Shown here in pieces: positions 6,318 to 17,699 of a stretch of DNA of 55,534 bases; position 1 is the first letter of the stretch; each line of letters starts with the position of its first letter. The notes beneath the pieces were generated by a model. The model was not told where the DNA came from, searched no databases, and saw nothing but the letters and a program-made list of their open reading frames with translations. A program made the translations under genes and the position numbers. Source of the stretch: a virus (lineage: Duplodnaviria > Caudoviricetes); IMG/VR virus record IMGVR_UViG_3300014613_000031, positions 1 to 55,534 of that record; one strand, written 5' to 3'.

Positions 6318-9300
6318 TTATCCTCCTTTCTTTATTTGGTCGTAATTAATAAATTCAACTTTTATCTGCTTACTTCCTTTCATTTTTTCAATGAAAATTC
6401 TATGATGGCCATCCATAATATAATTTTTGTTATTTTCTTTAACAATTAGTGGATGATCACTAAATTCTTCCCCCAATCCTTGTAGTTTGTTTATGACCCC
6501 TTCTTTTCTGATCAGATTCTGGGAAGGAATTATTTTATCAATATCAATATTTTTTATCTTGCCCTTCAGCTTCCAATTATCTTCAAGCCAATCACCAAGC
6601 TTACCAGCTTGTTTCTCATCCATTATTTCCTTAAAAAACGGTTTTATATCCACATAATCACCCCTTCCTTGAGGCATTAGTTTCCCCCTTGCAGATAATC
6701 CCGGCAGTTCTTTTATTTTATCCACCAGTTCTTGATCTTTAACTGTTATAGCCTTCTCGATGGGCTTTTTCACCACCTTCACCTCTGCACTGACACCCTT
6801 GGTGACTGGTCTGGCTTTAGTTTTGAGTAAGTCATCGAAGTACCCTTCCAGCGCTTTGGGCAACACCCCTCTACGATATAATGGAGAAGTATAAGCGGAA
6901 AAGACCTCTGCAAAAGCCTCTTCGTCGTTGGTCTGGGCATATTTACTCACTTTTTTGAACAGGTTTGTATTTTTATTAAAAACAACCTCCCATGCTTTTC
7001 TAACTTCTTCTGAAAGTTGTTGAGAAGTTCTATGTCCATACTCATGCCGAATCAAACCAAAATAATCATTTGATGTAAGATACTTCTTATCGCTAAGTTG
7101 CAAAGTGTGCTTCAAGGACTTCCCTCTTGCTGCTATTTGAAGCATAGAATCTTCAAATAAATAAGAACCCACTATATCGTCGCCCATAATACCGGGGAAG
7201 CTTTTTGCATCAACAACAACAAAATCCAGTAAATAATTATGGTGTATCGTTTTCAGTTCTGGAAACTGTTCATGAAGATTGTCTAAACTTTCCATTGCCA
7301 GTTTGGCTAAATTAAGTCCTTCCTCTTTCTTTGTAAACCCCTGTATGGAAACAGTGTCTATACGCAGTCGCTCCTCTGCTACTTTAGATAGTTCATCAAA
7401 GTCAACAGGGTTTTTCCATACAGCCGTTGTTGGTTTTGCAGTTATTTCCTTTATCTTAACAATGGAAGGGGGTTTCTCGACTTTCTTTATTATGGGGGTC
7501 TTTTTTATTTTATCAAAACGAACTCGCATACCTACAAACTTGTCCAATGTTTTAGCCAACTCAGGGGGGGCTTGTCCGGTAGCAACCAAATCTTTGGCTG
7601 TTCTCCATAACTTCACAACATCATCTTGTGGTATATCCAAAGAAGAACTACCAAACTTGGTTACCACTTGCAACTTTGCATCGATTTGTTTCGACAATTT
7701 TATTATGTCTTCTTTGAGTTTCTCCCTTGCTTTGACAGCTTTACTGAGTTCAGCTTTTAAGCCCTTCACTACAGGCTCAATAGCTATCCCACGCCGCCCA
7801 GGCAATCCCTTGCCTATCCGCCTTTCCATCTGATTTATTATCCGTTTGACCACTGGGTGTAGGGCATCCCCATTCATCATCTTGGCCATTGCTTCAGCAT
7901 AGAACTCCCCTTCATTTTTGAAAGCATACTCACTTACGAACCTGGGCATATCGGTGGGACCAATTTCTTTATATAAGTCCTTGACAACAGCCTCCGATAG
8001 GGGACGCGCTGATGTGGCTTCAGTCCCTCCAAGTTGGAAATACTTCTGGTGGGCAAGCTCATGCCGGACGACATGGCCCCTGCTGGATGTGGAAAATCTC
8101 CCCACTTGAAACTGATCCTTGGCCATGATGGTCATATCATCCAGGGACTTGAAGTATTTGGGGTTGAAGGCCACGGTGCCATCCTCAAAGCTCACCCCAG
8201 CCAGACTACGGTTGTTCCCAGTGAAGAAAACATCATTGATCCTGACACTGGTGGGTGTCACCTTGTACTCCTTTGCAATCCCCCCAAGATATTGGTTAAT
8301 GAGCTTGGCAGCACGGTTGTCGATGTCATCATAATCCACTTCCTTCAAGCCGAAGGTCTTCTTGGCGAAGTTCTCCGACTGCTTCAAGGAGGTCGTCTTC
8401 ACTGGGGCTGACTTGGCCACTGGGGGTTGGTCAAACTTCCGGGCACCCTTCTTGAGCAACTGCACGAGGTGGGCATCATCTCTGACTTCAATCATTGTGT
8501 TGAGCCTGTAATTGGCAAACCCCTTCTTGTAGTAGATCTTGCCAAAGTTGGGGGAGCCAGGGGTCTGCTCTATGACTACGGTATGTCCCCGCACCCCATA
8601 CTTCTTCTCAAAAGCTGCCTTACGGGCCTTAGCTGCTTTATCCATCCAGATCTGGTGCTTGGCACCCTCGGTATTATTTAAGATGGTCTTAAACTCAATG
8701 AACTCATTGTCCAGGAACATGTCAAAGGGTTTGGACCCAGTGCTGTGCTCTGCCCCTATCCTCCGAGCCATTTTACGCTCCATGAGTTCAGCTATATCAT
8801 GATCCTGCTTGGTCTTGACCCAGGCATTCTTGTGGGCCGCTACTTGCTTGGGAGACATCTTGGCCAAAAGTTCAGCGGGGATGGGCTTGGTGGGAGGTCC
8901 CTCTTTGTACAGCTTTTGTCTGGCAATACGGATGTAGTCGTCTATGACCAACTTCATATCATCGACTGACATGCCCTCCTGATACATATAGCGCATGACG
9001 TTAAGATCATTGAGGTTGTGCTGGGCAACAGCCAAAGGCTGCTTGGAGAGTACATCGTCCAGATACTTACCCACATCATCCCAGTTCTTGGCCTGAACTG
9101 ACTTGACGAAGTCTCCCATGGTGATAGAGTTGATCAGGTCGGCAGGGGCCCACTGGGGATGGGTGAAGACTTCGGCCTTGACACCCTTGGTGATTGGTTC
9201 AGCTTTGCCCAAAAAATCCACTTCCATTTCCCAAACATCATCAACTTTGTTAACTTTAACAATTCTAAAACTACTGTTTCTTGGAAGAAGCATTTCTAAA

Positions 9301-11180
9301 ACACCCGGATTTTCCTCAATATCATATTCCGGCATTTTCTTAGCAACAGCTTGAAGTGGGTTGACTTTACTACCTTTTGGTACTCGTATTTTATAAAAAA
9401 CTTTTTCTTCCCCCTTCTTAGTAAAAGCAAAATACTCACGAGCTATCCAATCAGTCATTGAAGTAGAAGCATAGGCCTTGTCAGTAAAAACAATTCCAGC
9501 AGCATTATCTAAATTTTTGAGAGCCTTTATTTTAGGTAGAATTTGTTGGTTTGTAGCAGCTCTAAATAAATAAATATTTTCGGGTAATTCCGTTTGAATT
9601 TTATCAAGTATTTTTACCACGTTATTTATTTCATTGGCACTATAAACTCCTACCTTGCCTGTCCGAAGGTAGTTATTAATAGCGTCAAACATGTCAACTG
9701 ACTCGTAGTTTTTAATTGCCTCCAGATCTGAAGTAGATAATTTAGAAGCCCACCTGGAAAAATTCTCCCCTACCCATTTATCAGCTTTATACCAATCATC
9801 AAATTGCCTGTATTCCAGATTCTCAGCCCCGACACCACCAGTGGTGGGCATCTTGGTGAACAGCTTCCCAAGCTCATCCAGCTCTTCCAACGTCAGGAGG
9901 CGGTTGTCCTTAACCATGTCAGCAAAGGTCAGGATGCCGTCCTTCCACGGGCCGTACTTCTGTGAGCCAAGTATCTCCCGCACGAAGTTGGGGTCCTCTA
10001 CATCCATCATCTTGAGCCAGTCGTTGTAACGCATGGTGTCAGGCACTCGCCCCGCCCACTTGGCTGGGTCCCCCCTATATTGAAGCATCTTGCTGGCCAG
10101 GCCCGGAGGTGGTGTCCCCTTGTAGACGAATGGGCGGGAGCCTGGGTATTCTGGATGATCAGTAGTAGCTCCAAGTTCCTTCCACGACTTGGTAATGGGG
10201 ACCAGGATGCAGTTATGGGCCACAAAACCATTTGCAATATAAGACTCATCCTCTTCAACCGCTATGTTATAAAGCATAGTAGCAATAGGATGCCGATCTT
10301 TCCCACCAACTTTTTCAGACCGCCAATTTCTTACGCCAATAACTTCCAGCTCAATAAATTTATATTCCTTTCTGTGATTCATCAGGACTCGTTGAACTTC
10401 ATCACCACAGGATTTGATGTTTGAGTTTATTTCAGTGTCTGTAAACCTCAATACCATCCACCCTAATGACTCTATTTTCTTCTGTCTTTTCAAATCCTTC
10501 TCTCCACTCTGGTATTGCTGTAAGTTGGCTATTGAGTTTTTCTTAGATACGTTTTTCCTGTGCTCTGGATCACTCCATTGTCTATCTGTTATGCCTTTAC
10601 TATTGCATGATTGGGAACAATATATACGATTATAAGGTATTAGCTTGCCGCACCTTTTGCAGTTGGATGCTAAAAACTTTATTTTCTGTCCAACATTAAT
10701 TTCATCAGCTTTTACCCACTCACCCTCTATGAAAAAAGGATGCTCCCTTGTAACTGTTAAGTTTTGTCCTCCCTTTCTATTCTTGCTTTGATTAATCCAA
10801 AAATTTGGAAGTCCAACTGTTATAGTTACAACATCAGGCCAAACCTCCCTGTTCCTTATTACTTCTGAGACTTTCCTAAATCGCCCTTTGTGAGTCAATA
10901 CAAGATCACCAACTTTTATCTTACCTATGGCTCTAAATCCTTTAGAGGTAAAAATGGGAATTTGATGATCTATAAAACAACGGCAGAGGGGATGTAACGG
11001 GGGTTGCTCCACCTTGCTTTTCCCGAATATGTATTGCCTTCCATCTTTTGAGGCGCAGATCATGCAATTATGCGCTATGACTCCTTCTGCAACAAAGGAA
11101 TGGTCATCTTCAATAGTGAGGTCCCAAACTTCCTTCGTTTCTTTAATTTTTTTAATAGATAAAATTTTTATCTTACCCAT
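6318..11180 (-). CDS. C-terminal half of fractured MuF head-morphogenesis protein: IntC, MuF core, cis intein, multi-enzyme cargo (ART, REase, 2 zincins, ParB/Srx)
   Basis: Likely ATG at 11180 (GAGG RBS); ...VIAHN/CMIC...HPLCR/CF...VAHN/CILVP; LFR..STS..LEMLLPR; PFD..IEFK; HELAH; HEYGH; DGHHR. Confidence 0.85.
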   Translation of the reverse strand: MGKIKILSIKKIKETKEVWDLTIEDDHSFVAEGVIAHNCMICASKDGRQYIFGKSKVEQPPLHPLCRCFIDHQIPIFTSKGFRAIGKIKVGDLVLTHKGRFRKVSEVIRNREVWPDVVTITVGLPNFWINQSKNRKGGQNLTVTREHPFFIEGEWVKADEINVGQKIKFLASNCKRCGKLIPYNRIYCSQSCNSKGITDRQWSDPEHRKNVSKKNSIANLQQYQSGEKDLKRQKKIESLGWMVLRFTDTEINSNIKSCGDEVQRVLMNHRKEYKFIELEVIGVRNWRSEKVGGKDRHPIATMLYNIAVEEDESYIANGFVAHNCILVPITKSWKELGATTDHPEYPGSRPFVYKGTPPPGLASKMLQYRGDPAKWAGRVPDTMRYNDWLKMMDVEDPNFVREILGSQKYGPWKDGILTFADMVKDNRLLTLEELDELGKLFTKMPTTGGVGAENLEYRQFDDWYKADKWVGENFSRWASKLSTSDLEAIKNYESVDMFDAINNYLRTGKVGVYSANEINNVVKILDKIQTELPENIYLFRAATNQQILPKIKALKNLDNAAGIVFTDKAYASTSMTDWIAREYFAFTKKGEEKVFYKIRVPKGSKVNPLQAVAKKMPEYDIEENPGVLEMLLPRNSSFRIVKVNKVDDVWEMEVDFLGKAEPITKGVKAEVFTHPQWAPADLINSITMGDFVKSVQAKNWDDVGKYLDDVLSKQPLAVAQHNLNDLNVMRYMYQEGMSVDDMKLVIDDYIRIARQKLYKEGPPTKPIPAELLAKMSPKQVAAHKNAWVKTKQDHDIAELMERKMARRIGAEHSTGSKPFDMFLDNEFIEFKTILNNTEGAKHQIWMDKAAKARKAAFEKKYGVRGHTVVIEQTPGSPNFGKIYYKKGFANYRLNTMIEVRDDAHLVQLLKKGARKFDQPPVAKSAPVKTTSLKQSENFAKKTFGLKEVDYDDIDNRAAKLINQYLGGIAKEYKVTPTSVRINDVFFTGNNRSLAGVSFEDGTVAFNPKYFKSLDDMTIMAKDQFQVGRFSTSSRGHVVRHELAHQKYFQLGGTEATSARPLSEAVVKDLYKEIGPTDMPRFVSEYAFKNEGEFYAEAMAKMMNGDALHPVVKRIINQMERRIGKGLPGRRGIAIEPVVKGLKAELSKAVKAREKLKEDIIKLSKQIDAKLQVVTKFGSSSLDIPQDDVVKLWRTAKDLVATGQAPPELAKTLDKFVGMRVRFDKIKKTPIIKKVEKPPSIVKIKEITAKPTTAVWKNPVDFDELSKVAEERLRIDTVSIQGFTKKEEGLNLAKLAMESLDNLHEQFPELKTIHHNYLLDFVVVDAKSFPGIMGDDIVGSYLFEDSMLQIAARGKSLKHTLQLSDKKYLTSNDYFGLIRHEYGHRTSQQLSEEVRKAWEVVFNKNTNLFKKVSKYAQTNDEEAFAEVFSAYTSPLYRRGVLPKALEGYFDDLLKTKARPVTKGVSAEVKVVKKPIEKAITVKDQELVDKIKELPGLSARGKLMPQGRGDYVDIKPFFKEIMDEKQAGKLGDWLEDNWKLKGKIKNIDIDKIIPSQNLIRKEGVINKLQGLGEEFSDHPLIVKENNKNYIMDGHHRIFIEKMKGSKQIKVEFINYDQIKKGG
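10212..10979 (-). mobile_element. cis-splicing intein (256 aa) with Zn finger and DUF559/Vsr-like endonuclease remnant
   Basis: Starts CFIDHQ, block B VTREHPF, ends YNIAVEEDESYIANGFVAHN/C; internal CKRC..YCSQSC and KDLKRQKKIESLGWMVLRF. Confidence 0.9.
11067..11180 (-). mobile_element. split intein C-fragment (IntC, 38 aa)
   Basis: MGKIKILSIKKIKETKEVWDLTIEDDHSFVAEGVIAHN then Cys+1; blocks F/G only, at the protein N-terminus. Confidence 0.9.
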
Positions 11181-11664
11181 TGACTGCCTCAGCACTACTG
11201 TTTTTATCTTCAACTATATTTTTATAAAACTTTTTCCAACGATCCCTTCTTACATTGGCTCTGGAATTACAGCTATTACACAAGGTTATTAGATTTAAGG
11301 GATGACAATCCAGGTGGTATATTAGATAACACTCTCTGCTACAGCACTTGGCATTTTTATTTCCCGTCCTGAAAGATGCACCACACGCTAAGCATTTAAA
11401 TTCTATAACACCCTTTCCGTGATCAATGAGATAACAAGGTCGCGAACAGAACTGCTGAGAAGAACTATCCCCTTTAAAAAACAACTTGCCACAAGTTTTA
11501 CAACAAACAAGCTTTCCTTTCCTATCTATGTAATCTTTCAGAGGCTGACCTTTCATACTCTTCCAATAACAGACAGGAGAGCAAAACTTTTGTGTCTTGC
11601 CATTACTCAAAAATTCTCTCTTACATACAGGACAAATTGCTTTGTTAGATTCCTTCAATGTCAT
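11173..11664 (-). CDS. free-standing Zn-finger/HNH homing endonuclease, probably degenerate
   Basis: Three CxxC...(F/C)CSxxC fingers then NLITLCNSCN (HNH C-terminal half); ATG 11664 with GAGGGG RBS; sits between IntN and IntC. Confidence 0.7.
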   Translation of the reverse strand: MTLKESNKAICPVCKREFLSNGKTQKFCSPVCYWKSMKGQPLKDYIDRKGKLVCCKTCGKLFFKGDSSSQQFCSRPCYLIDHGKGVIEFKCLACGASFRTGNKNAKCCSRECYLIYHLDCHPLNLITLCNSCNSRANVRRDRWKKFYKNIVEDKNSSAEAVNG

Positions 11665-12604
11665 CCCCCTCACAGAGATTGCCTATTTCCACCCACTCAC
11701 CATTGTGCAAGACAGGATGGTCCGAAGTTATTTTTAATTTCCTCCCATTAGACAACTCCACTTCAAGATACTCTTCAACTACTTTGGGCTGTTTATCTAT
11801 AACCTTCTTCCAATTCTGTTCACGAGTAAAAACAAGATCACCTATTTGAACATCAGCCAATTCCTTGTCCCCGTCCACTGTCAAAATATTGGTTTCTGGC
11901 AATAAACAGGTCCTATCATCAAGGGTACTGACCCACTCCACACCCTTTACTACATCATCGTTGGCCTGGTATATGGCGAGACTCACTTCATTACTAATCC
12001 TCTGTATCTCAGTGCGGGCTATGACTTCAGCCTGGTTGCGTATGCGATTCCCAACAGTGCCCCCGATGACCTCCCCCACCCCAAAAATCCTTCGACTGGC
12101 TTTGGCCATGTCCTCCCCAAGTATCACGGACTGGGTCAGTTCCTGCTTCATATTGAACACGGTGCCCCGGTAGTTCTCCCTCATCCGCTCAGCCCAATCG
12201 GCCCCACCCAGTGGGGTCATTACCATCTGATTCACCTGCTCAAAGGGAATGCGACTGATGTCTACTCCTATCTGTCCGAGTTTACCACCGAGCATGGCCT
12301 GATAGTAAACCGACTCAGACATGGAGAACTGCTGTAGCTGGCTGGAAAGTCCGGTGATGGCGTCACCAGTGGCGTTGTTGAGCACAGTCTCAATTTCACG
12401 CAACTTATCTTGAAGCACTCCAATACGATACTCCTGAGTGAAACCCTGACCCGTGTCTATGAGGGCCTTCATCTTCTCTTGGATTACAACCTTCGCCTTA
12501 GTGTAATGGGAAACAAGCTGGTTGGCTGTTCCATTCTCGAAACGATATGTGTAATGAGACTTCTTGAGAAGAAGGTCTCGGAATTCTTCGTTGATTGTTT
12601 TCAC
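11645..12604 (-). CDS. N-terminal half of fractured MuF (SPP1 gp7/Mu F family) fused to IntN
   Basis: IARTE...EWVSTLDDRT MuF motif, then an intein N-domain and a stop; located just after the portal. Confidence 0.88.
   Translation of the reverse strand: MKTINEEFRDLLLKKSHYTYRFENGTANQLVSHYTKAKVVIQEKMKALIDTGQGFTQEYRIGVLQDKLREIETVLNNATGDAITGLSSQLQQFSMSESVYYQAMLGGKLGQIGVDISRIPFEQVNQMVMTPLGGADWAERMRENYRGTVFNMKQELTQSVILGEDMAKASRRIFGVGEVIGGTVGNRIRNQAEVIARTEIQRISNEVSLAIYQANDDVVKGVEWVSTLDDRTCLLPETNILTVDGDKELADVQIGDLVFTREQNWKKVIDKQPKVVEEYLEVELSNGRKLKITSDHPVLHNGEWVEIGNLCEGDDIEGI
11648..11908 (-). mobile_element. split intein N-fragment (IntN, 87 aa)
   Basis: CLLPETNILTVDG (block A)...ITSDHPV (block B)...GDDIEGI-stop. 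Confidence 0.9.
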
Positions 12605-12885
12605 TTCAGCAAATCCTCAAAGGGAACATCCCTACGGATGGGGTCCTTGTAGTCGTGTTTGGGCATGAACTTGGGCTTATAAGGAACTAAAGGATTGTGA
12701 ACCTCATTGCGTTCCTTCCTGCGTTGGGCCGCGATGCGACGTTCCCTGGCGATAACCAGCCTCAGGTTACAGGCCCTACAGATGGACTGGTAACCATCCC
12801 GAGTTTGGGGGTGGTGAGAGAACTGTGTCACCGGCAGGAGCCTCCTACCCTTGTGATCCTTGTGACTGCAACTTTTTTCTTTCAT
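12601..12885 (-). CDS. hypothetical Zn-finger protein
   Basis: CSHKDH...F...RDGYQSICRAC; coupled to neighbours. Confidence 0.5.
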   Translation of the reverse strand: MKEKSCSHKDHKGRRLLPVTQFSHHPQTRDGYQSICRACNLRLVIARERRIAAQRRKERNEVHNPLVPYKPKFMPKHDYKDPIRRDVPFEDLLK

Positions 12886-13039
12886 CGATCTTGAGCTTCC
12901 TCCCCTTCAATCGTTCCTGACGACGAGCTTCCTTCTCTATACGACGTTGTTTGTTAGCCTCACGGTTACCTTCCTTACGGTAACGCTCACACTTGGCTTT
13001 GTCCTTGCCCGCTTTGCTGTTCGCCTTTGCCTTGCCCAT
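12845..13039 (-). CDS. small basic hypothetical protein
   Basis: K/R-rich; start overlaps the portal stop. Confidence 0.5.
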   Translation of the reverse strand: MGKAKANSKAGKDKAKCERYRKEGNREANKQRRIEKEARRQERLKGRKLKIDERKKLQSQGSQG

Positions 13040-14517
13040 CAGAACTCCTCTTCCTCCTCATATTCGCTGCCAAACTGATTCACCGGGGCAGCTGGCATGG
13101 CAAAAGGTGTGGCATATATATCGTCACCCTTTTCCAGCTCCAGGTTTCTCTTTTCCTCATCGGGATCGAGTCCCTCCTTCATCTGCCAGGTCTTACGACT
13201 CAACACCTTGCTACGGAACTGGATCTCCCGCGCCTTGTTGTTCTTCTCTATGTCTGCCAGGATGAGTGGGGGCCACTCCACCGAGCACTCCTCACTCTCC
13301 CCTTCAGGGATCTTCTTGTCCCCAAACTCCTTGTGTCCACGCACCATCCCTCGGAAGATGTCTGCGTAGAAGAACTCAAAGAAGTCCTGCCAATCTTCGA
13401 TCTCCCTAACGAAGGGGTTCTGAGCTACCATGCTTGAGCTGTAATTGGCGTTGCTGAAATCCGCAGTCAGGAACATCTCTGGAAAACCTACCCCTGCGGC
13501 CACAGCCAGGAGCATTGACCGACCGTCGTCTTTAACGTCCTGGGCATGAATGTTGGGACTGATCATCTGATAACTTATACCCTGGCTGGCCGTCAGGACA
13601 GTTGCCCTCTGGGGCATCTTAAACTTGGCCTTGTCCGCATCTTTGTGCTCAGTACGTTGACTCTCCCTCAAATTGGAAACCGCACCACTTGTGCCATCCA
13701 CCGTGCGAATCAGGGCTATTGCTGACCGTACCTTGTTGAGAGCAATTCGATCATCAAGCCAGTCAGTATATTTGGTTATCATGGGCATTGCGTGGTAGTA
13801 TATGGAAAGACCCCGCTTCATATCACTGTCCACAAGTATCTTTATATGAATAACCTGATCGGCAGGGATCTTCTCAATGAGATTCCCGTCCATCCCACAA
13901 AAGTAATACGTCTTCACATCCTCAATGTCGTCAGGGTTGGTACCTATACCAAAGGTCACCTTTTCATCGGGATTCACTTGCCTATCAGAAGTTGGGTTCT
14001 TTATATTATGGGCCCTCAGGAAACGCAAATCAATGTCCCCTGTTGACTCATCCATGAACTTCCTCAGAAATACCTCCCCATCCCTGAATGACCGCATCAC
14101 CATTTCCTTCTCCCGCAGACTCCACCTGTTCCTGATGCAGAAGGACTTCCAGTAATCCCCAATCAGCTTGTTCTCGGACAACGACTTGAGTGTCGGACCC
14201 TTGCCAAGGACAAACTTGGCGAGATTTCGTACTATTGCCCGACCAAACAGATTGCTTTTATAGAACCCCCAAGCCCTATCCAACATCCTCTGATGATTGA
14301 TCTGAGTAAGCACGAGACTCTCTGGGGAAGTCCCTCCATCCCCACCATAGCCCTGACCTGTAAGTAGCCAACCGCTATCCTCCGCGTCGGGTGCAGGGAC
14401 AAACCTCTGTGCCTCCTTGCCAAAGTACTGGGACAGCACCTTAGTCTGCTCTATTTCAAGCTTCAGTTGCTCTCCCTTGAGAGAAGCCTTCAGCTGCAAA
14501 TTTTTAAATATTCCCAT
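13039..14517 (-). CDS. portal protein
   Basis: 492 aa between TerL and MuF; RDGEVF, VIHIK..RGLS, SNANYSS motifs. Confidence 0.88.
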   Translation of the reverse strand: MGIFKNLQLKASLKGEQLKLEIEQTKVLSQYFGKEAQRFVPAPDAEDSGWLLTGQGYGGDGGTSPESLVLTQINHQRMLDRAWGFYKSNLFGRAIVRNLAKFVLGKGPTLKSLSENKLIGDYWKSFCIRNRWSLREKEMVMRSFRDGEVFLRKFMDESTGDIDLRFLRAHNIKNPTSDRQVNPDEKVTFGIGTNPDDIEDVKTYYFCGMDGNLIEKIPADQVIHIKILVDSDMKRGLSIYYHAMPMITKYTDWLDDRIALNKVRSAIALIRTVDGTSGAVSNLRESQRTEHKDADKAKFKMPQRATVLTASQGISYQMISPNIHAQDVKDDGRSMLLAVAAGVGFPEMFLTADFSNANYSSSMVAQNPFVREIEDWQDFFEFFYADIFRGMVRGHKEFGDKKIPEGESEECSVEWPPLILADIEKNNKAREIQFRSKVLSRKTWQMKEGLDPDEEKRNLELEKGDDIYATPFAMPAAPVNQFGSEYEEEEEF

Positions 14518-14602: not shown

Positions 14603-16450
14603 TTACGAAAACCAATAGCCTGGCTCATCAACCACCTCCGTAATCGGGGTGGCTATCATAGGAATGAATTTGTAAGCACTCTGTACCACATATCGTATGC
14701 AGTCCATCCCATGGTCATCTACAGCGAGGGGGCTGCGGCGGATGGGCTTGCCATCCATACCCCTCGGGTACCTGTATCGCTCAAACTCCGCATCACTGCC
14801 CATGAGGCCGTTGGGGGAATCCAAATATCCATCTATCAGATAGAGCCAACTCTTCACCTTAGCCGAGTCAGTATAGTCAACATAAGACTCCAGGTGGTTT
14901 CGCACAAGGTCTATCCCATCTTCCACTGCATTCACCGCCCCGTGGGTGTCCAAGTTGTAAATTTCAGCCAGATCCACTCGTGACTGCTTGGAAGATGGGT
15001 CAGCAAATATTACCTCCCCAGGCACATAGTGAGGGGAAGCTTTTATAACTGCTGTGTGTTGGGCAAGGGTACCTGACGCAGCCCTATACTCATAGAAGAA
15101 CCAGAACTTCAGTTTGTAATGTATCTCAGTCTGCCCAGGCTTCGCCTCTTCCGTAGCTCGGTAGAAATCCCCAAAGTCCACCCAAGCCTTCTTGTACACG
15201 AAGGGGTGCCCAGGGGAAGAGCCAAAATCTATCGCTGAGATGATCAGAGAGTTAGTTCCAAGCTCTGGCTCCGACCCGGTAGGCAAGTAATGAAGCTCCC
15301 TGTTCCAGTAGCCTCCATAAACTAGAGCCTCCTGGCTGGGCCTGCGGTTGAGCCACTGGGATTCCCACACATCCTTGTTCAGAGTACGGGCCTTGTCGAT
15401 CAAGTCATCTACTTTGTAAAATCCAATGCAATTATGAGCCATACCCTTGCACTTGTCATATATTAGGCAATCCCCATAATGGGAGTCGCCATGGCACTTG
15501 CGGGTGCACTTCTCAAGCACTTCATAAATGCACCAGCAGTATACCTTCATTCCCCGCTCTGCCGACTCACTCAGAAGCCTCTGGAAAGTACCATTGTCAT
15601 ATTTACGTGTTGACAATAGTGTAAGCTGTCCTGCGATATCCCCCTTGCTTAGGGACATGCTGAAGGCTTCCTGCAAGACATCCCATGACATCAGTTCCAC
15701 CTCGTCCACCCGAGCCTTCTGGGGGTGGGGAGAGTTCAGACCGTTCATGCTGCCTGTGATAACTTCCAATTCCGCCCCGGTGGTGTATTCGGTCTTGCTC
15801 TTGGTGGGTACCTTGGAATAGAGACCCTTCACTTCAGGGCTGTTCTTGTGGAACTCCATAAAATACTTATACACCTTGTCTGCCTGCTTAATGATGGAGC
15901 CCGCAGAAGCTACCTCACAGTCCTTCTTGAAGGCCATGTCCAGATGATTCAAGATGGCCACATTAGTGGTCTTACCCCCTGTGCGGTTGGCGAAGGCTAT
16001 GGTGGTACGTTCCCTTTCAAAAAACATGTCCTTGACATAATCAAACGGGGCACAATGGGGATAATCAAACTGTGAGACCTCCGGGTTGTGTAGTTCACAG
16101 GTGGGAATCTTCGGTATACTCTTGCCAAGGTAATAACGGATATACCAATGGAGCACATGTTCATCCCCGATCCCATGCTTCAGCAGACATCCAAACAGTC
16201 GCTTATTGATCCCAAGTTTGTGACGCTGTTTGGGGGTAAATCCCCGCTCCAGTTTCTCAGTAGTAAACTCAAAGCGGGCCACATGACCGAGGACCTCCGG
16301 CTTCTCAAAGAGGTTGTCCGGGATAGTCTGCTTGCGTATGTAGTGTTCAATAATCTGCACTAACACCCAAGCCCACCCCTTGACCCGACGCTTCTGCAAC
16401 AACCACGGGGCAAACCCCGCCGACATAAACTCGTCCTTACTCATCCCCAT
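14603..16450 (-). CDS. terL: terminase large subunit
   Basis: Walker A ANRTGGKT, Walker B ARVDE, nuclease IDFG...ADPS...[10 protein letters not shown]. Confidence 0.92.
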
Positions 16451-16911
16451 CAGCTATCCCCTTCCGGATTGAATCCTGCTGTCCCCTTCTTGCCCGGATC
16501 TATTATGTAGGCCATTCGTAACATCATGTCCAGGGGCATCGATCCCACCCTGACATGGGAGGTGCACCGGGCCACTTCCAGCCCTTCCTGCAGGGGGACG
16601 TCATACTCGCTACACTTGGCCCAGACGGTCAACCCATATCTGGTGGAAGCGAACTGCATGTGCTTACATCCCGAGCACAACCCAAACCCTGCAGGCACCT
16701 GCTGCCCCCTACGACTGGTGGTACTTTCGGCATTTCCACACTCATCCCCCAGACCCATCCGCCAGGTCTCATCCTCCGCCCCATCCATCATAGTCTTCCG
16801 CTCTTCTGCTTCCAACTCCGTAAAACGCTTGGTCGTCAATCCATTACCTCCTCCACTTATTTTAAAAATCTCGCCTGGTTGTACCAACGATCCCTGAGCC
16901 ACTGCTGCCAA
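16450..16911 (-). CDS. hypothetical Cys-containing protein (start uncertain)
   Basis: GLCSGCKH motif; stop overlaps the TerL start. Confidence 0.5.
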
Positions 16912-17699
16912 CTACGGGGTAATATATCAAATACCTCCATCAGGTAATAGTACAGCAACACCTTCCTGTACCACATCCCATCAACGTGGGGCATCCACTT
17001 CTGAACCACCTGGCGACTCTCCACTCGTCGCCTGTGGATCTGACTTATGACACTACCCTCCAGGAGGTAGAGTGTACACAGGGGTGCATCGATGAAATGC
17101 ACCTCATATTCATGGGCCACCTTTAGCCACAGGTCCCAATCATGACTTACGTCCAGAGAGATGTCCATTGGCCCATACTGTTCCCATATGTCCCTGCGTA
17201 TTACCACTGTGGAAGTGGGCATAAAATTCTTCCTGATCAGGTATGGGAATACCCGCCCCGAGTGGCATGTGGAGGTCTTTGACCACAGCTCCCTCCGACC
17301 ATCAGGGTAGTGGATGTGAGCATCGGTATAACTGATGGCTGCCCCGGTAATGTCCATCCACTGGAGTTGGATGGTGAGCTTTCGGGAGTCCCAAGTGTCA
17401 TCTGAATCCAGGGTGGCCAGGTACTCTCCCCGAGCCATGCGACAGCCTATATTGCGGGGGATCACCGGGGAGCCGGACTGTCGGTGGGTATGGGTGATGC
17501 GTAGACCGGGTAGCCTTTGGGGGATCACCCACCCGCTGATTAGGGAGTCCCAGGTTCCGTCTGTGGAGCAGTCGTCCACCACGATGACTTCCACCTCCTC
17601 CGGGGGGAATTCCTGCTGTCGGGTGATGGACTCCAGGGCCCGTCTCAATTGTGGAGCCCGATTGTAGGTGGGGATTATGATGCTGACAAGTTTATCCAT
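16857..17699 (-). CDS. family 2 glycosyltransferase
   Basis: VSIIIPTYNR, VVDDCSTD, LDSDD, HDWDLW. Confidence 0.92.
   Translation of the reverse strand: MDKLVSIIIPTYNRAPQLRRALESITRQQEFPPEEVEVIVVDDCSTDGTWDSLISGWVIPQRLPGLRITHTHRQSGSPVIPRNIGCRMARGEYLATLDSDDTWDSRKLTIQLQWMDITGAAISYTDAHIHYPDGRRELWSKTSTCHSGRVFPYLIRKNFMPTSTVVIRRDIWEQYGPMDISLDVSHDWDLWLKVAHEYEVHFIDAPLCTLYLLEGSVISQIHRRRVESRQVVQKWMPHVDGMWYRKVLLYYYLMEVFDILPRSWQQWLRDRWYNQARFLK

Follow-up and report, generated by a model that had tools for sequence, protein, structure and literature searches.

A MuF head-morphogenesis gene of an uncultured groundwater phage, fractured at a gp41-1-type split intein and most likely rejoined by protein trans-splicing

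The stretch of DNA analysed here (the window) is the whole of the linear virus record IMGVR_UViG_3300014613_000031, 55.5 kb from an uncultured groundwater phage, with an estimated completeness of 49%. A first-pass annotation made from the letters alone had proposed that a naturally split intein breaks the MuF head-morphogenesis gene of this phage in two. All open reading frames (ORFs) that we rely on lie on the minus strand. The first gene joins the MuF N-terminus to the N-terminal intein half (IntN), a small ORF (ORF2) follows, and the third gene opens with the C-terminal intein half (IntC), as laid out below.

12604..11645, minus strand: gene 1, 319 residues, consisting of MuF-N (232 residues) and IntN (87 residues)
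11909..12604, minus strand: N-extein, 232 residues ending ...STLDDRT, a MuF/gp7-type head-morphogenesis N-terminus
11645..11908, minus strand: IntN, 87 residues (Cys1...TSDH...EGI; coding part 11908..11648) and its TAA stop (11647..11645)
11664..11173, minus strand: ORF2, 163 residues from its ATG, or 166 residues from a GTG at 11673
11180..6318, minus strand: gene 3, 1620 residues from the ATG at 11180, consisting of IntC, middle extein, second intein and cargo
11187..11190, minus strand: GAGG, a Shine-Dalgarno-like motif 6 nucleotides 5' of the IntC ATG, within the 3' end of ORF2
11067..11180, minus strand: IntC, 38 residues, MGKIKILSIKKIKETKEVWDLTIEDDHSFVAEGVIAHN, ending ...VIAHN and followed by the +1 Cys
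10980..11066, minus strand: middle extein, 29 residues, CMICASKDGRQYIFGKSKVEQPPLHPLCR (CMICASKDG...PPLHPLCR), carrying the MuF Cys/His motif
10212..10979, minus strand: second intein, contiguous, 256 residues (CFIDHQ...VAHN), gene 3 residues 68-323
6318..10211, minus strand: C-extein, 1297 residues and stop, the remaining MuF core and polyvalent cargo

Gene 1 reads ...WVSTLDDRT|CLLPET...ITSDHPV...GDDIEGI*, and its stop lies 464 nucleotides from the IntC ATG. The start coordinates modulo 3 (1, 0 and 2) place gene 1, ORF2 and gene 3 in three different frames. The ORF2 ATG is directly preceded by GAGGGGG and the IntC ATG by GAGG-N6; ORF2 overlaps gene 1 by 20 nucleotides and gene 3 by 8 nucleotides (ATGGGTAA). 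The description that had been given of this layout was reproduced in all its sequence statements: MuF-N followed by an 87-residue acidic IntN ending GDDIEGI* (net charge -10), an IntC gene some 470 bp downstream with a Lys-rich first half (464 nucleotides away; 38 residues; +3), three frames, and a ribosome-binding site and ATG for each downstream ORF. It needs correcting for the two gene overlaps, and its naming of the middle ORF as an HNH gene stands only in part, as ORF2 lacks a Pfam HNH match and is a deletion derivative by alignment (see below). The arithmetic for the product without inteins, 232+29+1297 = 1558 residues, is correct. The GC content is 0.30-0.43 in both mobile elements and some of the cargo modules (0.31-0.43 across 10200-11900), against 0.49-0.57 in conserved extein DNA.

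Both halves of the broken intein are recognised by hidden Markov models (HMMs) for inteins. TIGR01445 (intein_Nterm) scores 28.4 bits on gene 1 residues 233-299 (cut-off 24.5) and TIGR01443 (intein_Cterm) scores 58.2 on gene 3 in two stretches (cut-off 15.6; E 5.6e-16), so that the HMM search suggested as a check on the split-intein proposal came out in its favour. In addition, positions 122-155 of Pfam Intein_splicing match gene 3 residues 5-38. The best solved match of IntN in the PDB is the gp41-1 split intein (6qaz, E 5.2e-5), with an ungapped alignment over 77 residues (5-81 against 8-84) and a break at the same place. IntN stops at residue 87 here, and 87+38 gives 125 residues, equal to the gp41-1 intein, which is described as 125 residues long with Asn125 as its last (10.1101/546465). 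The gp41-1-type fragment sizes that had been proposed are therefore confirmed. The residues expected of a class 1 intein, Cys1, Thr-x-x-His, the terminal His-Asn and the +1 Cys, are all present alongside these scores over cut-off. C233, immediately after DDRT, does not vary across the 12 aligned inteins of this site (site a). In the stretch T293-S-D-H296, which is the Thr-x-x-His motif of intein block B, T293 is invariant and D295 and H296 nearly so among the same 12 sequences. IntC ends ...VIAHN|C, and the three split relatives for which this half is known all share H37, N38 and C39.

The three extein pieces of the window align end to end with the 832-residue protein of metagenome locus L004, the closest uninterrupted homologue. 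The N-extein is 45% identical to its residues 3-239, the middle extein aligns with residues 238-268, and the C-extein is 52% identical to it over 470 residues, the L004 protein being without the ADP-ribosyltransferase (ART) part. Across both intein sites L004 reads LDDRT-CIVCGSRDG...PPLHPLCR-CVFCPLTKSW. Profile coordinates tell of the same continuity: phrog_241 (head morphogenesis; E 4.3e-30 for the N-extein, residues 1-233) is matched to position 239 and again from 268 after the 29-residue piece, whilst in phrog_2841 the N-extein reaches position 270 and the middle extein covers 268-301. Pfam Phage_Mu_F (PF04233) is covered over profile positions 3-78 of 112, the match ending at the intein, and its score of 23.1 stays under the cut-off of 29.6 because the MuF domain is interrupted. 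Leaving out both inteins restores the motif D-x-R-T-C...H-P-x-C-R-C, as found in L004 and in the related proteins P0004, P0006 and P0007; the proposal that intein removal would rebuild the canonical MuF motif is thus borne out by the LDDRT-C...HPLCR-C of L004. PF04233 matches one MuF gene in the whole record.

The broken layout recurs unchanged in other assemblies. Positions 10000-12700 are complete in two groundwater runs and partial in runs of other studies. In run X2 they are covered from end to end, with 0 differences, by a 23.8-kb contig of depth 16 that may itself have given rise to the window, and run X3, from another study, has the pieces 11226-11697 and 11684-12385, again with 0 differences, which span the junction of IntN stop and ORF2 start and that of extein and IntN. 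The same two proteins are present in Logan/ENA (79.6-kb contig) and JGI (70.9 kb) assemblies, and the identical sequence comes from samples of different studies and years. Given the three frames and the identical contigs of two studies, the claim that a single sequencing error is insufficient to explain the break holds. Rfam returned no match at E up to 1 in 9800-13000, neither to a group I intron nor to another RNA element near ORF2, so no known intron family was detected at the break. RNA run X9 was set aside as evidence of expression, as it offers a 213-nucleotide contig identical to 10447-10659, within the second intein, together with two short, unlike pieces, and DNA carry-over is possible. 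Runs X5-X12 share only a small part of the sequence words of the stretch, and X9 is the one among them that entered the comparison.

We found the same split in relatives of the phage. A word-based protein search gave 13 proteins, one of them the window's own. P0002, P0003 and P0005 (318-323 residues; 48-57% identity) consist of MuF-N and IntN, their ends being 0-4 residues away from that of the window's protein. Eight of the 13 match in the N-extein only, and P0006, P0007, P0008, P0010, P0011 and P0012 read through without an intein. A contiguous intein occupies the DDRT|C site in P0004, P0023, P0025, P0046 and P0061; in P0004 (486 residues) this is a mini-intein of 132 residues with no second intein, and P0023 (920 residues) carries both inteins in contiguous form. 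From 127 candidate stretches of metagenome contigs we retained 10 loci, of which L006 and L008 present the split at the DNA level: IntN and its stop, a Cys-rich gene of 355 or 347 residues with a C-terminal HNH, and an ATG-initiated IntC (38 residues) leading into the C-extein, with the second intein absent. L011 has the same IntN/IntC split with a middle gene reduced to a 60-codon remnant. These three loci are 48-52% identical to the window in protein. In these and the window, four loci in all, the intein halves lie on separate genes with their own stop and start, the middle-gene ATG falls within the last IntN codons, and the IntC ATG follows a Shine-Dalgarno-like motif and overlaps the middle-gene stop (as ATGGATAA in L006, L008 and L011). 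L007, like L004, has an uninterrupted MuF, so intact versions do exist in related phages, where the first-pass annotation had recommended looking for them. L014 shows an IntN beginning at the DDRT|C site before its contig ends, and the matches to L009 and L010 stop at residue 233/234, which, judged by match ends, fits an empty site.

In a tree of the N-extein (19 rows, with P0010 left out), the split, contiguous and empty alleles all fall within one supported clade, the split P0002 grouping with the empty P0006 and P0008 (91/97). This mixture looks like the sporadic pattern expected of a mobile element. The order of the split, contiguous and empty states could not be read from the tree, as 13 of its 16 inner branches are unresolved. 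An exhaustive HMMER search with IntN yielded 957 proteins at E <=1e-3, and the IntN-like part is C-terminal in 32 of the 153 among them that were matched by phmmer. Eight of those 32 carry it after the MuF ...LD.RT|C motif and nine after a ...H.N| motif, which we read as the second MuF site; of three such proteins tested with Pfam, P0072 and P0088 contain MuF and P0142 does not. The nine (P0072, P0088, P0085, P0118, P0121, P0142, P0143, P0152 and P0157) have a C-terminal IntN directly after PP.H.N, which gives them the look of inteins split at this second site. Ala replaces Cys at the intein start in P0085, P0118, P0143 and P0157. Other C-terminal IntN-like parts follow DnaE-like motifs (P0050, with PHP and DNA_pol3_alpha) or, by eye only, radical-SAM-like Cys motifs. 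Among cultured phages, 202 records match gene 1, all below 60% identity, and IntN matches 24 records at 29-36% identity (ribonucleotide reductase, UvsW helicase, portal and Gordonia MuF-like proteins); these matches, not inspected singly, include no close relative and no evident split MuF. High-depth contig pieces of 35-43 nucleotides from three groundwater runs match 10938-10980 and 11141-11175 with 4-7 differences, where the coding sequences of the second intein and of IntC begin, and probably stem from related inteins of other organisms in the community.

The middle gene appears to be a remnant of the element that broke the intein. ORF2 consists of Cys-rich zinc-ribbon repeats and the C-terminal part of an HNH module, and aligns with the first zinc-ribbon repeats and the last ~40 residues of the 355/347-residue gene of L006 and L008, of which some 190 residues are absent. 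By this alignment it is a deletion derivative of the free-standing HNH-family homing-endonuclease gene of 347-355 residues found in the relatives, with a deletion junction that joins the ribbon motif CSRECYLIYH to the HNH tail. A Pfam scan found no HNH match in ORF2, and phrog_1271 ('HNH endonuclease') matches it at E 4.7e-7, against 5.9e-18 for the L006 gene. ORF2 still has residues in the Cys/His columns that do not vary among eight family members: C107, C112, H117, C120, N124, C129, C132, N133 and N137 align with invariant columns, with shortened spacing. The AlphaFold model of ORF2 has a mean predicted local distance difference test (pLDDT) value of 56, falling below 50 over residues 99-137. 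ORF2 is probably a decaying endonuclease gene whose product is inactive.

The intein halves themselves seem to have been kept. Between L006 and L008, dN/dS is 0.12 for IntN (89 codons) and 0.04 for IntC (38 codons), with the N-extein at 0.06 and the HNH gene at 0.12, values that point to purifying selection on both halves. The charges of the two halves have also changed together. The pairing strand of the window's IntN is acidic (KVVEEYLEVELS, net -3, with -10 for the whole IntN), and the first 20 residues of IntC are Lys-rich with a net charge of +3. This strand is basic in 10 of the 12 site-a inteins and acidic in the window and P0061. Opposite charges are paired in eight of the nine inteins for which both halves are known, the acidic-N/basic-C combination in both acidic cases (window and P0061) and the basic-N/acidic-C combination in six of six, with P0046 as the exception. 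At the contact pair IntN-49/IntC-10 of our structural model, the window has E/K where L006 and L008 have K/E. Such a paired inversion on both halves supports an association of IntN with IntC, by comparison of the sequences. The gp41-1 intein is reported to have extensive charge interactions on its pairing strands, which have been used to engineer orthogonal pairs (10.1101/546465). A complex model of IntN with IntC has a score of 0.63, whereas the highest among three controls is 0.00. It passes a mark that 58 of 80 solved complexes attain, as do 2 of 110 mismatched pairs. We supplied our own alignments, and because solved split inteins exist, this pass may reflect likeness to them. The model sets IntN 279-284 against IntC 5-12; at least 89% of the contacts are common to the runs, and partner pLDDT does not fall below 67.

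Taken together, these data show a genuine fractured MuF gene whose product is most likely assembled by protein trans-splicing, and we put the probability of this at roughly 85%. An ancestral mini-intein would have sat at DDRT|C of the only MuF gene detected in the phage, and a free-standing HNH homing-endonuclease gene would have invaded the loop that normally holds an intein endonuclease, its 5' end supplying the IntN stop and its 3' end the IntC start codon (ATG) together with the ribosome-binding site. The expected products are then three proteins: MuF-N-IntN (319 residues), the shortened endonuclease (163 residues) and IntC-extein-intein2-cargo (1620 residues), probably from one late transcript. 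IntN and IntC are predicted to associate through two long beta-strands of opposite charge, the acidic EEYLEVELS of IntN and the Lys-rich KILSIKKIK of IntC, and could then form a single HINT domain that splices in trans by means of Cys1, Thr-x-x-His, His-Asn and the +1 Cys. With the second intein splicing in cis, the product would be a MuF-cargo protein of 1558 residues, which may be packaged in the virion. Co-transcription is something we infer, since the scans for signals between the genes gave none: 10900-12900 contains no promoter-like site, no terminator-like site lies between gene 1, ORF2 and gene 3 (the single one, at 12640-12627, is upstream of gene 1), and folds around the ORF2 and IntC starts are no better than shuffles (z +1.5 and -1.6). 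The proposal of a split intein in a fractured gene is therefore supported by the HMMs, the gp41-1 match and the intein-less homologues, and backed further by recurrence, purifying selection, charge inversion and the complex model.

Several points weigh against this reading and need to be considered. Association, splicing and expression are predictions from sequence and a structural model. The record is 49% complete, so a second MuF gene may lie elsewhere. The Pfam intein families score above their cut-offs on gene 3 and below them on gene 1, the latter being expected of half a domain. Between the window and its split relatives synonymous sites are saturated (pS 0.65-0.90), and the dN/dS values above therefore speak for L006 and L008 rather than directly for the window's own halves. 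The split is established at the DNA level for L006, L008 and L011, whilst the ends of P0002, P0005, P0035, P0040 and P0062 are protein-level and on short contigs. A word search for other proteins starting with IntC and the middle extein found only the window's among 19 candidates, a result that is weak either way. The comparison between runs rests on contigs rather than reads, leaving depth and rare variants outside its reach; the two runs with the whole 10000-12700 stretch are perhaps the source of the window; and X3 has no piece over 11042-11225, where ORF2 ends and IntC starts. For the coverage check proposed for 11060-11910, the answer comes from contigs, which show 0 differences, with this gap in X3.

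We regard it as improbable that the gene is simply broken, with an endonuclease invasion having killed the intein so that the halves neither bind nor splice, and with a full-length MuF-cargo protein that is dispensable or a genome that is defective. In favour of this, the endonuclease parts of both inteins have decayed and the record is incomplete. Against it, both frames are intact, including 1620 codons past the break, and all splicing residues are kept; diverged relatives retain the split, with purifying selection acting on it, and do so even where the endonuclease gene is almost gone; the charge changes are paired on both halves; and the sequence is identical across samples of different studies and years. 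The chances are equally slim for a purely non-covalent arrangement, in which IntN and IntC serve as a dimerisation pair and form no peptide bond. The complex model speaks for association and not for chemistry, and fractured genes that work as two chains have a precedent in phage Aeh1 NrdA, described as two pieces working as separate chains (PMC2677866). However, Cys1, Thr-x-x-His, His-Asn and the +1 Cys would be useless to a dimeriser and yet are invariant or nearly so in the family, and an unexcised HINT domain of 125 residues would sit inside the MuF Cys/His motif, beside the second intein. We find it hardly credible that the break stems from an intron, from programmed frameshifting or from a mistake in sequencing or assembly: the window is a metagenome assembly compared with contigs only, but any repair would have to deal with three frames, two stops and two starts, contigs of two studies show no differences or indels over the IntN stop, Rfam gives no match, and L006, L008 and L011 have the same layout at 48-52% protein identity.

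The second, contiguous intein has also lost most of its endonuclease. Its Pfam matches are PT-HINT, Intein_splicing and, over profile positions 64-108 only, DUF559 (23.1 bits, cut-off 20.6), and it contains one zinc ribbon and a C-terminal remnant of a DUF559/Vsr-like endonuclease domain. It is 62% and 56% identical to the second intein of P0023, with 138 residues (P0023 571-708) missing, among them most of the DUF559/Vsr-like domain. Intein and remnant share one reading frame, as they do in P0023, whose copy is fuller (DUF559 E 2.7e-17). Inteins of MuF minor capsid proteins have been published with non-canonical antisense or out-of-frame endonucleases (10.1101/2025.01.02.630785), and Vsr-like genes were known to Dassa 2009 as free-standing only, so far as that survey describes them (PMC2677866). 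The second intein starts CFIDHQIPIFTSKG, near-identical to the CFIDHQIPIFTSRG of P0023, and yet lies two codons further downstream (HPLCR|C...HN|CILVP in the window against HPY|C...HN|CRCVLAP in P0023); one lineage therefore seems to occupy sites before either Cys of CRC.

The cargo of gene 3 includes an ART domain (ADPrib_exo_Tox, E 1.2e-18, residues 466-646 = 9243..9785, minus strand). This domain is without counterpart in the 52%-identical L004 protein and the GC content there is 0.32-0.37, which together suggest a recently acquired cargo module. Further along, 6318-7800 (minus strand) has a GC content of 0.30-0.41 and two HExxH-type motifs. An ATLF-like match (E 9e-5) and one to ParBc_2, a ParB-like nuclease (E 0.019), both fall below Pfam cut-offs and serve as functional hints only; Pfam found nothing for residues 650-1130. 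Upstream of gene 1 lie the packaging genes, in the usual order terminase-portal-MuF.

13039..14517, minus strand: portal (phrog_21, E 4.6e-30)
14603..16450, minus strand: large terminase (phrog_9 and phrog_5653, E ~1e-4, weak)

Between portal and MuF is a Cys-rich ORF of 94 residues (12601-12885, minus strand) with a weak Lar-like PHROG match (E 3.7e-5), and a small Cys-rich ORF is kept in this position in relatives (L004 5697-6005; L007 282-581). An ORF of 280 residues just upstream of the packaging genes (16857-17699, minus strand) starts MDKLVSIIIPTYNRAPQL and looks like a family-2 glycosyltransferase.

The architecture of the locus is a known one, here in a virion protein rather than a DNA-metabolism enzyme. 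Fractured genes such as gp41-1, NrdJ-1 and IMPDH-1 have been described, mainly from phages, together with the proposal that the stop ending the upstream piece and the start opening the downstream one both come in with the invading element (Dassa 2009, PMC2677866). The stop/start arrangement of our four loci matches this proposal. As in those genes, the 3' end of the endonuclease gene overlaps the start of IntC, by 8 nucleotides here and 6-69 bp there (PMC2677866). Within that group gp41-1 is the closest likeness, with the most similar IntN, the same break point and the same total size. Our case differs in its host, a virion or ejected MuF polyvalent protein in place of the eight kinds of enzyme for DNA synthesis or repair reported there, and in a second, contiguous intein 29 residues downstream, which those genes, as described, do not have. 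A split intein with an HNH gene between its halves is also described for the Pseudomonas jumbo phage MIJ3, where the host gene is DNA polymerase B, the intein starts with Ser and the account mentions no tandem second intein (PMC6892783). Contiguous inteins have been reported in MuF-like minor capsid proteins of actinobacteriophages (Gosselin, Arsenault & Gogarten, 10.1101/2025.01.02.630785), with endonucleases that are antisense or out of frame in that account, unlike the in-frame Vsr/DUF559 remnant of the window.

MuF inteins are further annotated in GenBank for Guernseyvirinae, Escherichia phage Snoke and vB-Eco-KMB36. That of Snoke has the same host family and lies in the same HPxCRC motif as the second intein of the window; like those of the actinobacteriophages it is contiguous, and its site is HPN|C, not DDRT|C. 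In polyvalent MuF proteins and MuF polymorphic toxins, an N-terminal MuF module is fused to enzymatic cargo domains. The window's protein resembles them in its MuF module and string of cargo (ART, metallopeptidase-like, ParB-like), and differs in that the link between MuF-N and cargo would be made after translation. TerL, the host gene of the AceL-TerL and GOS-TerL inteins, is the large terminase. These two are naturally split inteins from environmental sequence (PMC11766414) and, like the window's, lie outside replication enzymes; they are described as atypical, with an IntN of 25-37 residues, compared with the canonical gp41-1-type split of 87 + 38 residues seen here. The first-pass annotation therefore overrated the novelty of the find, given that the architecture, an HNH-split PolB, split TerL and contiguous MuF inteins had all been published. 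Our literature search found no paper on a split intein in MuF, although supplementary lists may hold one.

With this locus, a virion or ejected polyvalent protein joins the hosts of naturally split gp41-1-type inteins. The stages that have been proposed for how split inteins arise and what becomes of them are all present in one family: an empty site, a contiguous mini-intein, a split with an intact endonuclease gene, one with a half-deleted gene and one with a 60-residue remnant. Such a natural series of alleles offers a test of the invasion-and-decay model of Dassa 2009. The inversion of charge on both halves among close relatives is a natural counterpart of the engineered orthogonal split inteins described for gp41-1 (10.1101/546465), and points to ligation tools. 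We consider it doubtful, though somewhat less so than the alternatives weighed above, that the window's pair is a natural charge-inverted, and hence orthogonal, version of the MuF split intein of L006, L008 and L011. If it were, strand polarity would decide which MuF head piece is ligated to which cargo piece in a co-infection, the family would supply ready-made orthogonal ligation pairs, and split inteins could allow or block the exchange, at the protein level, of capsid-targeting modules and ejected cargo between phages.

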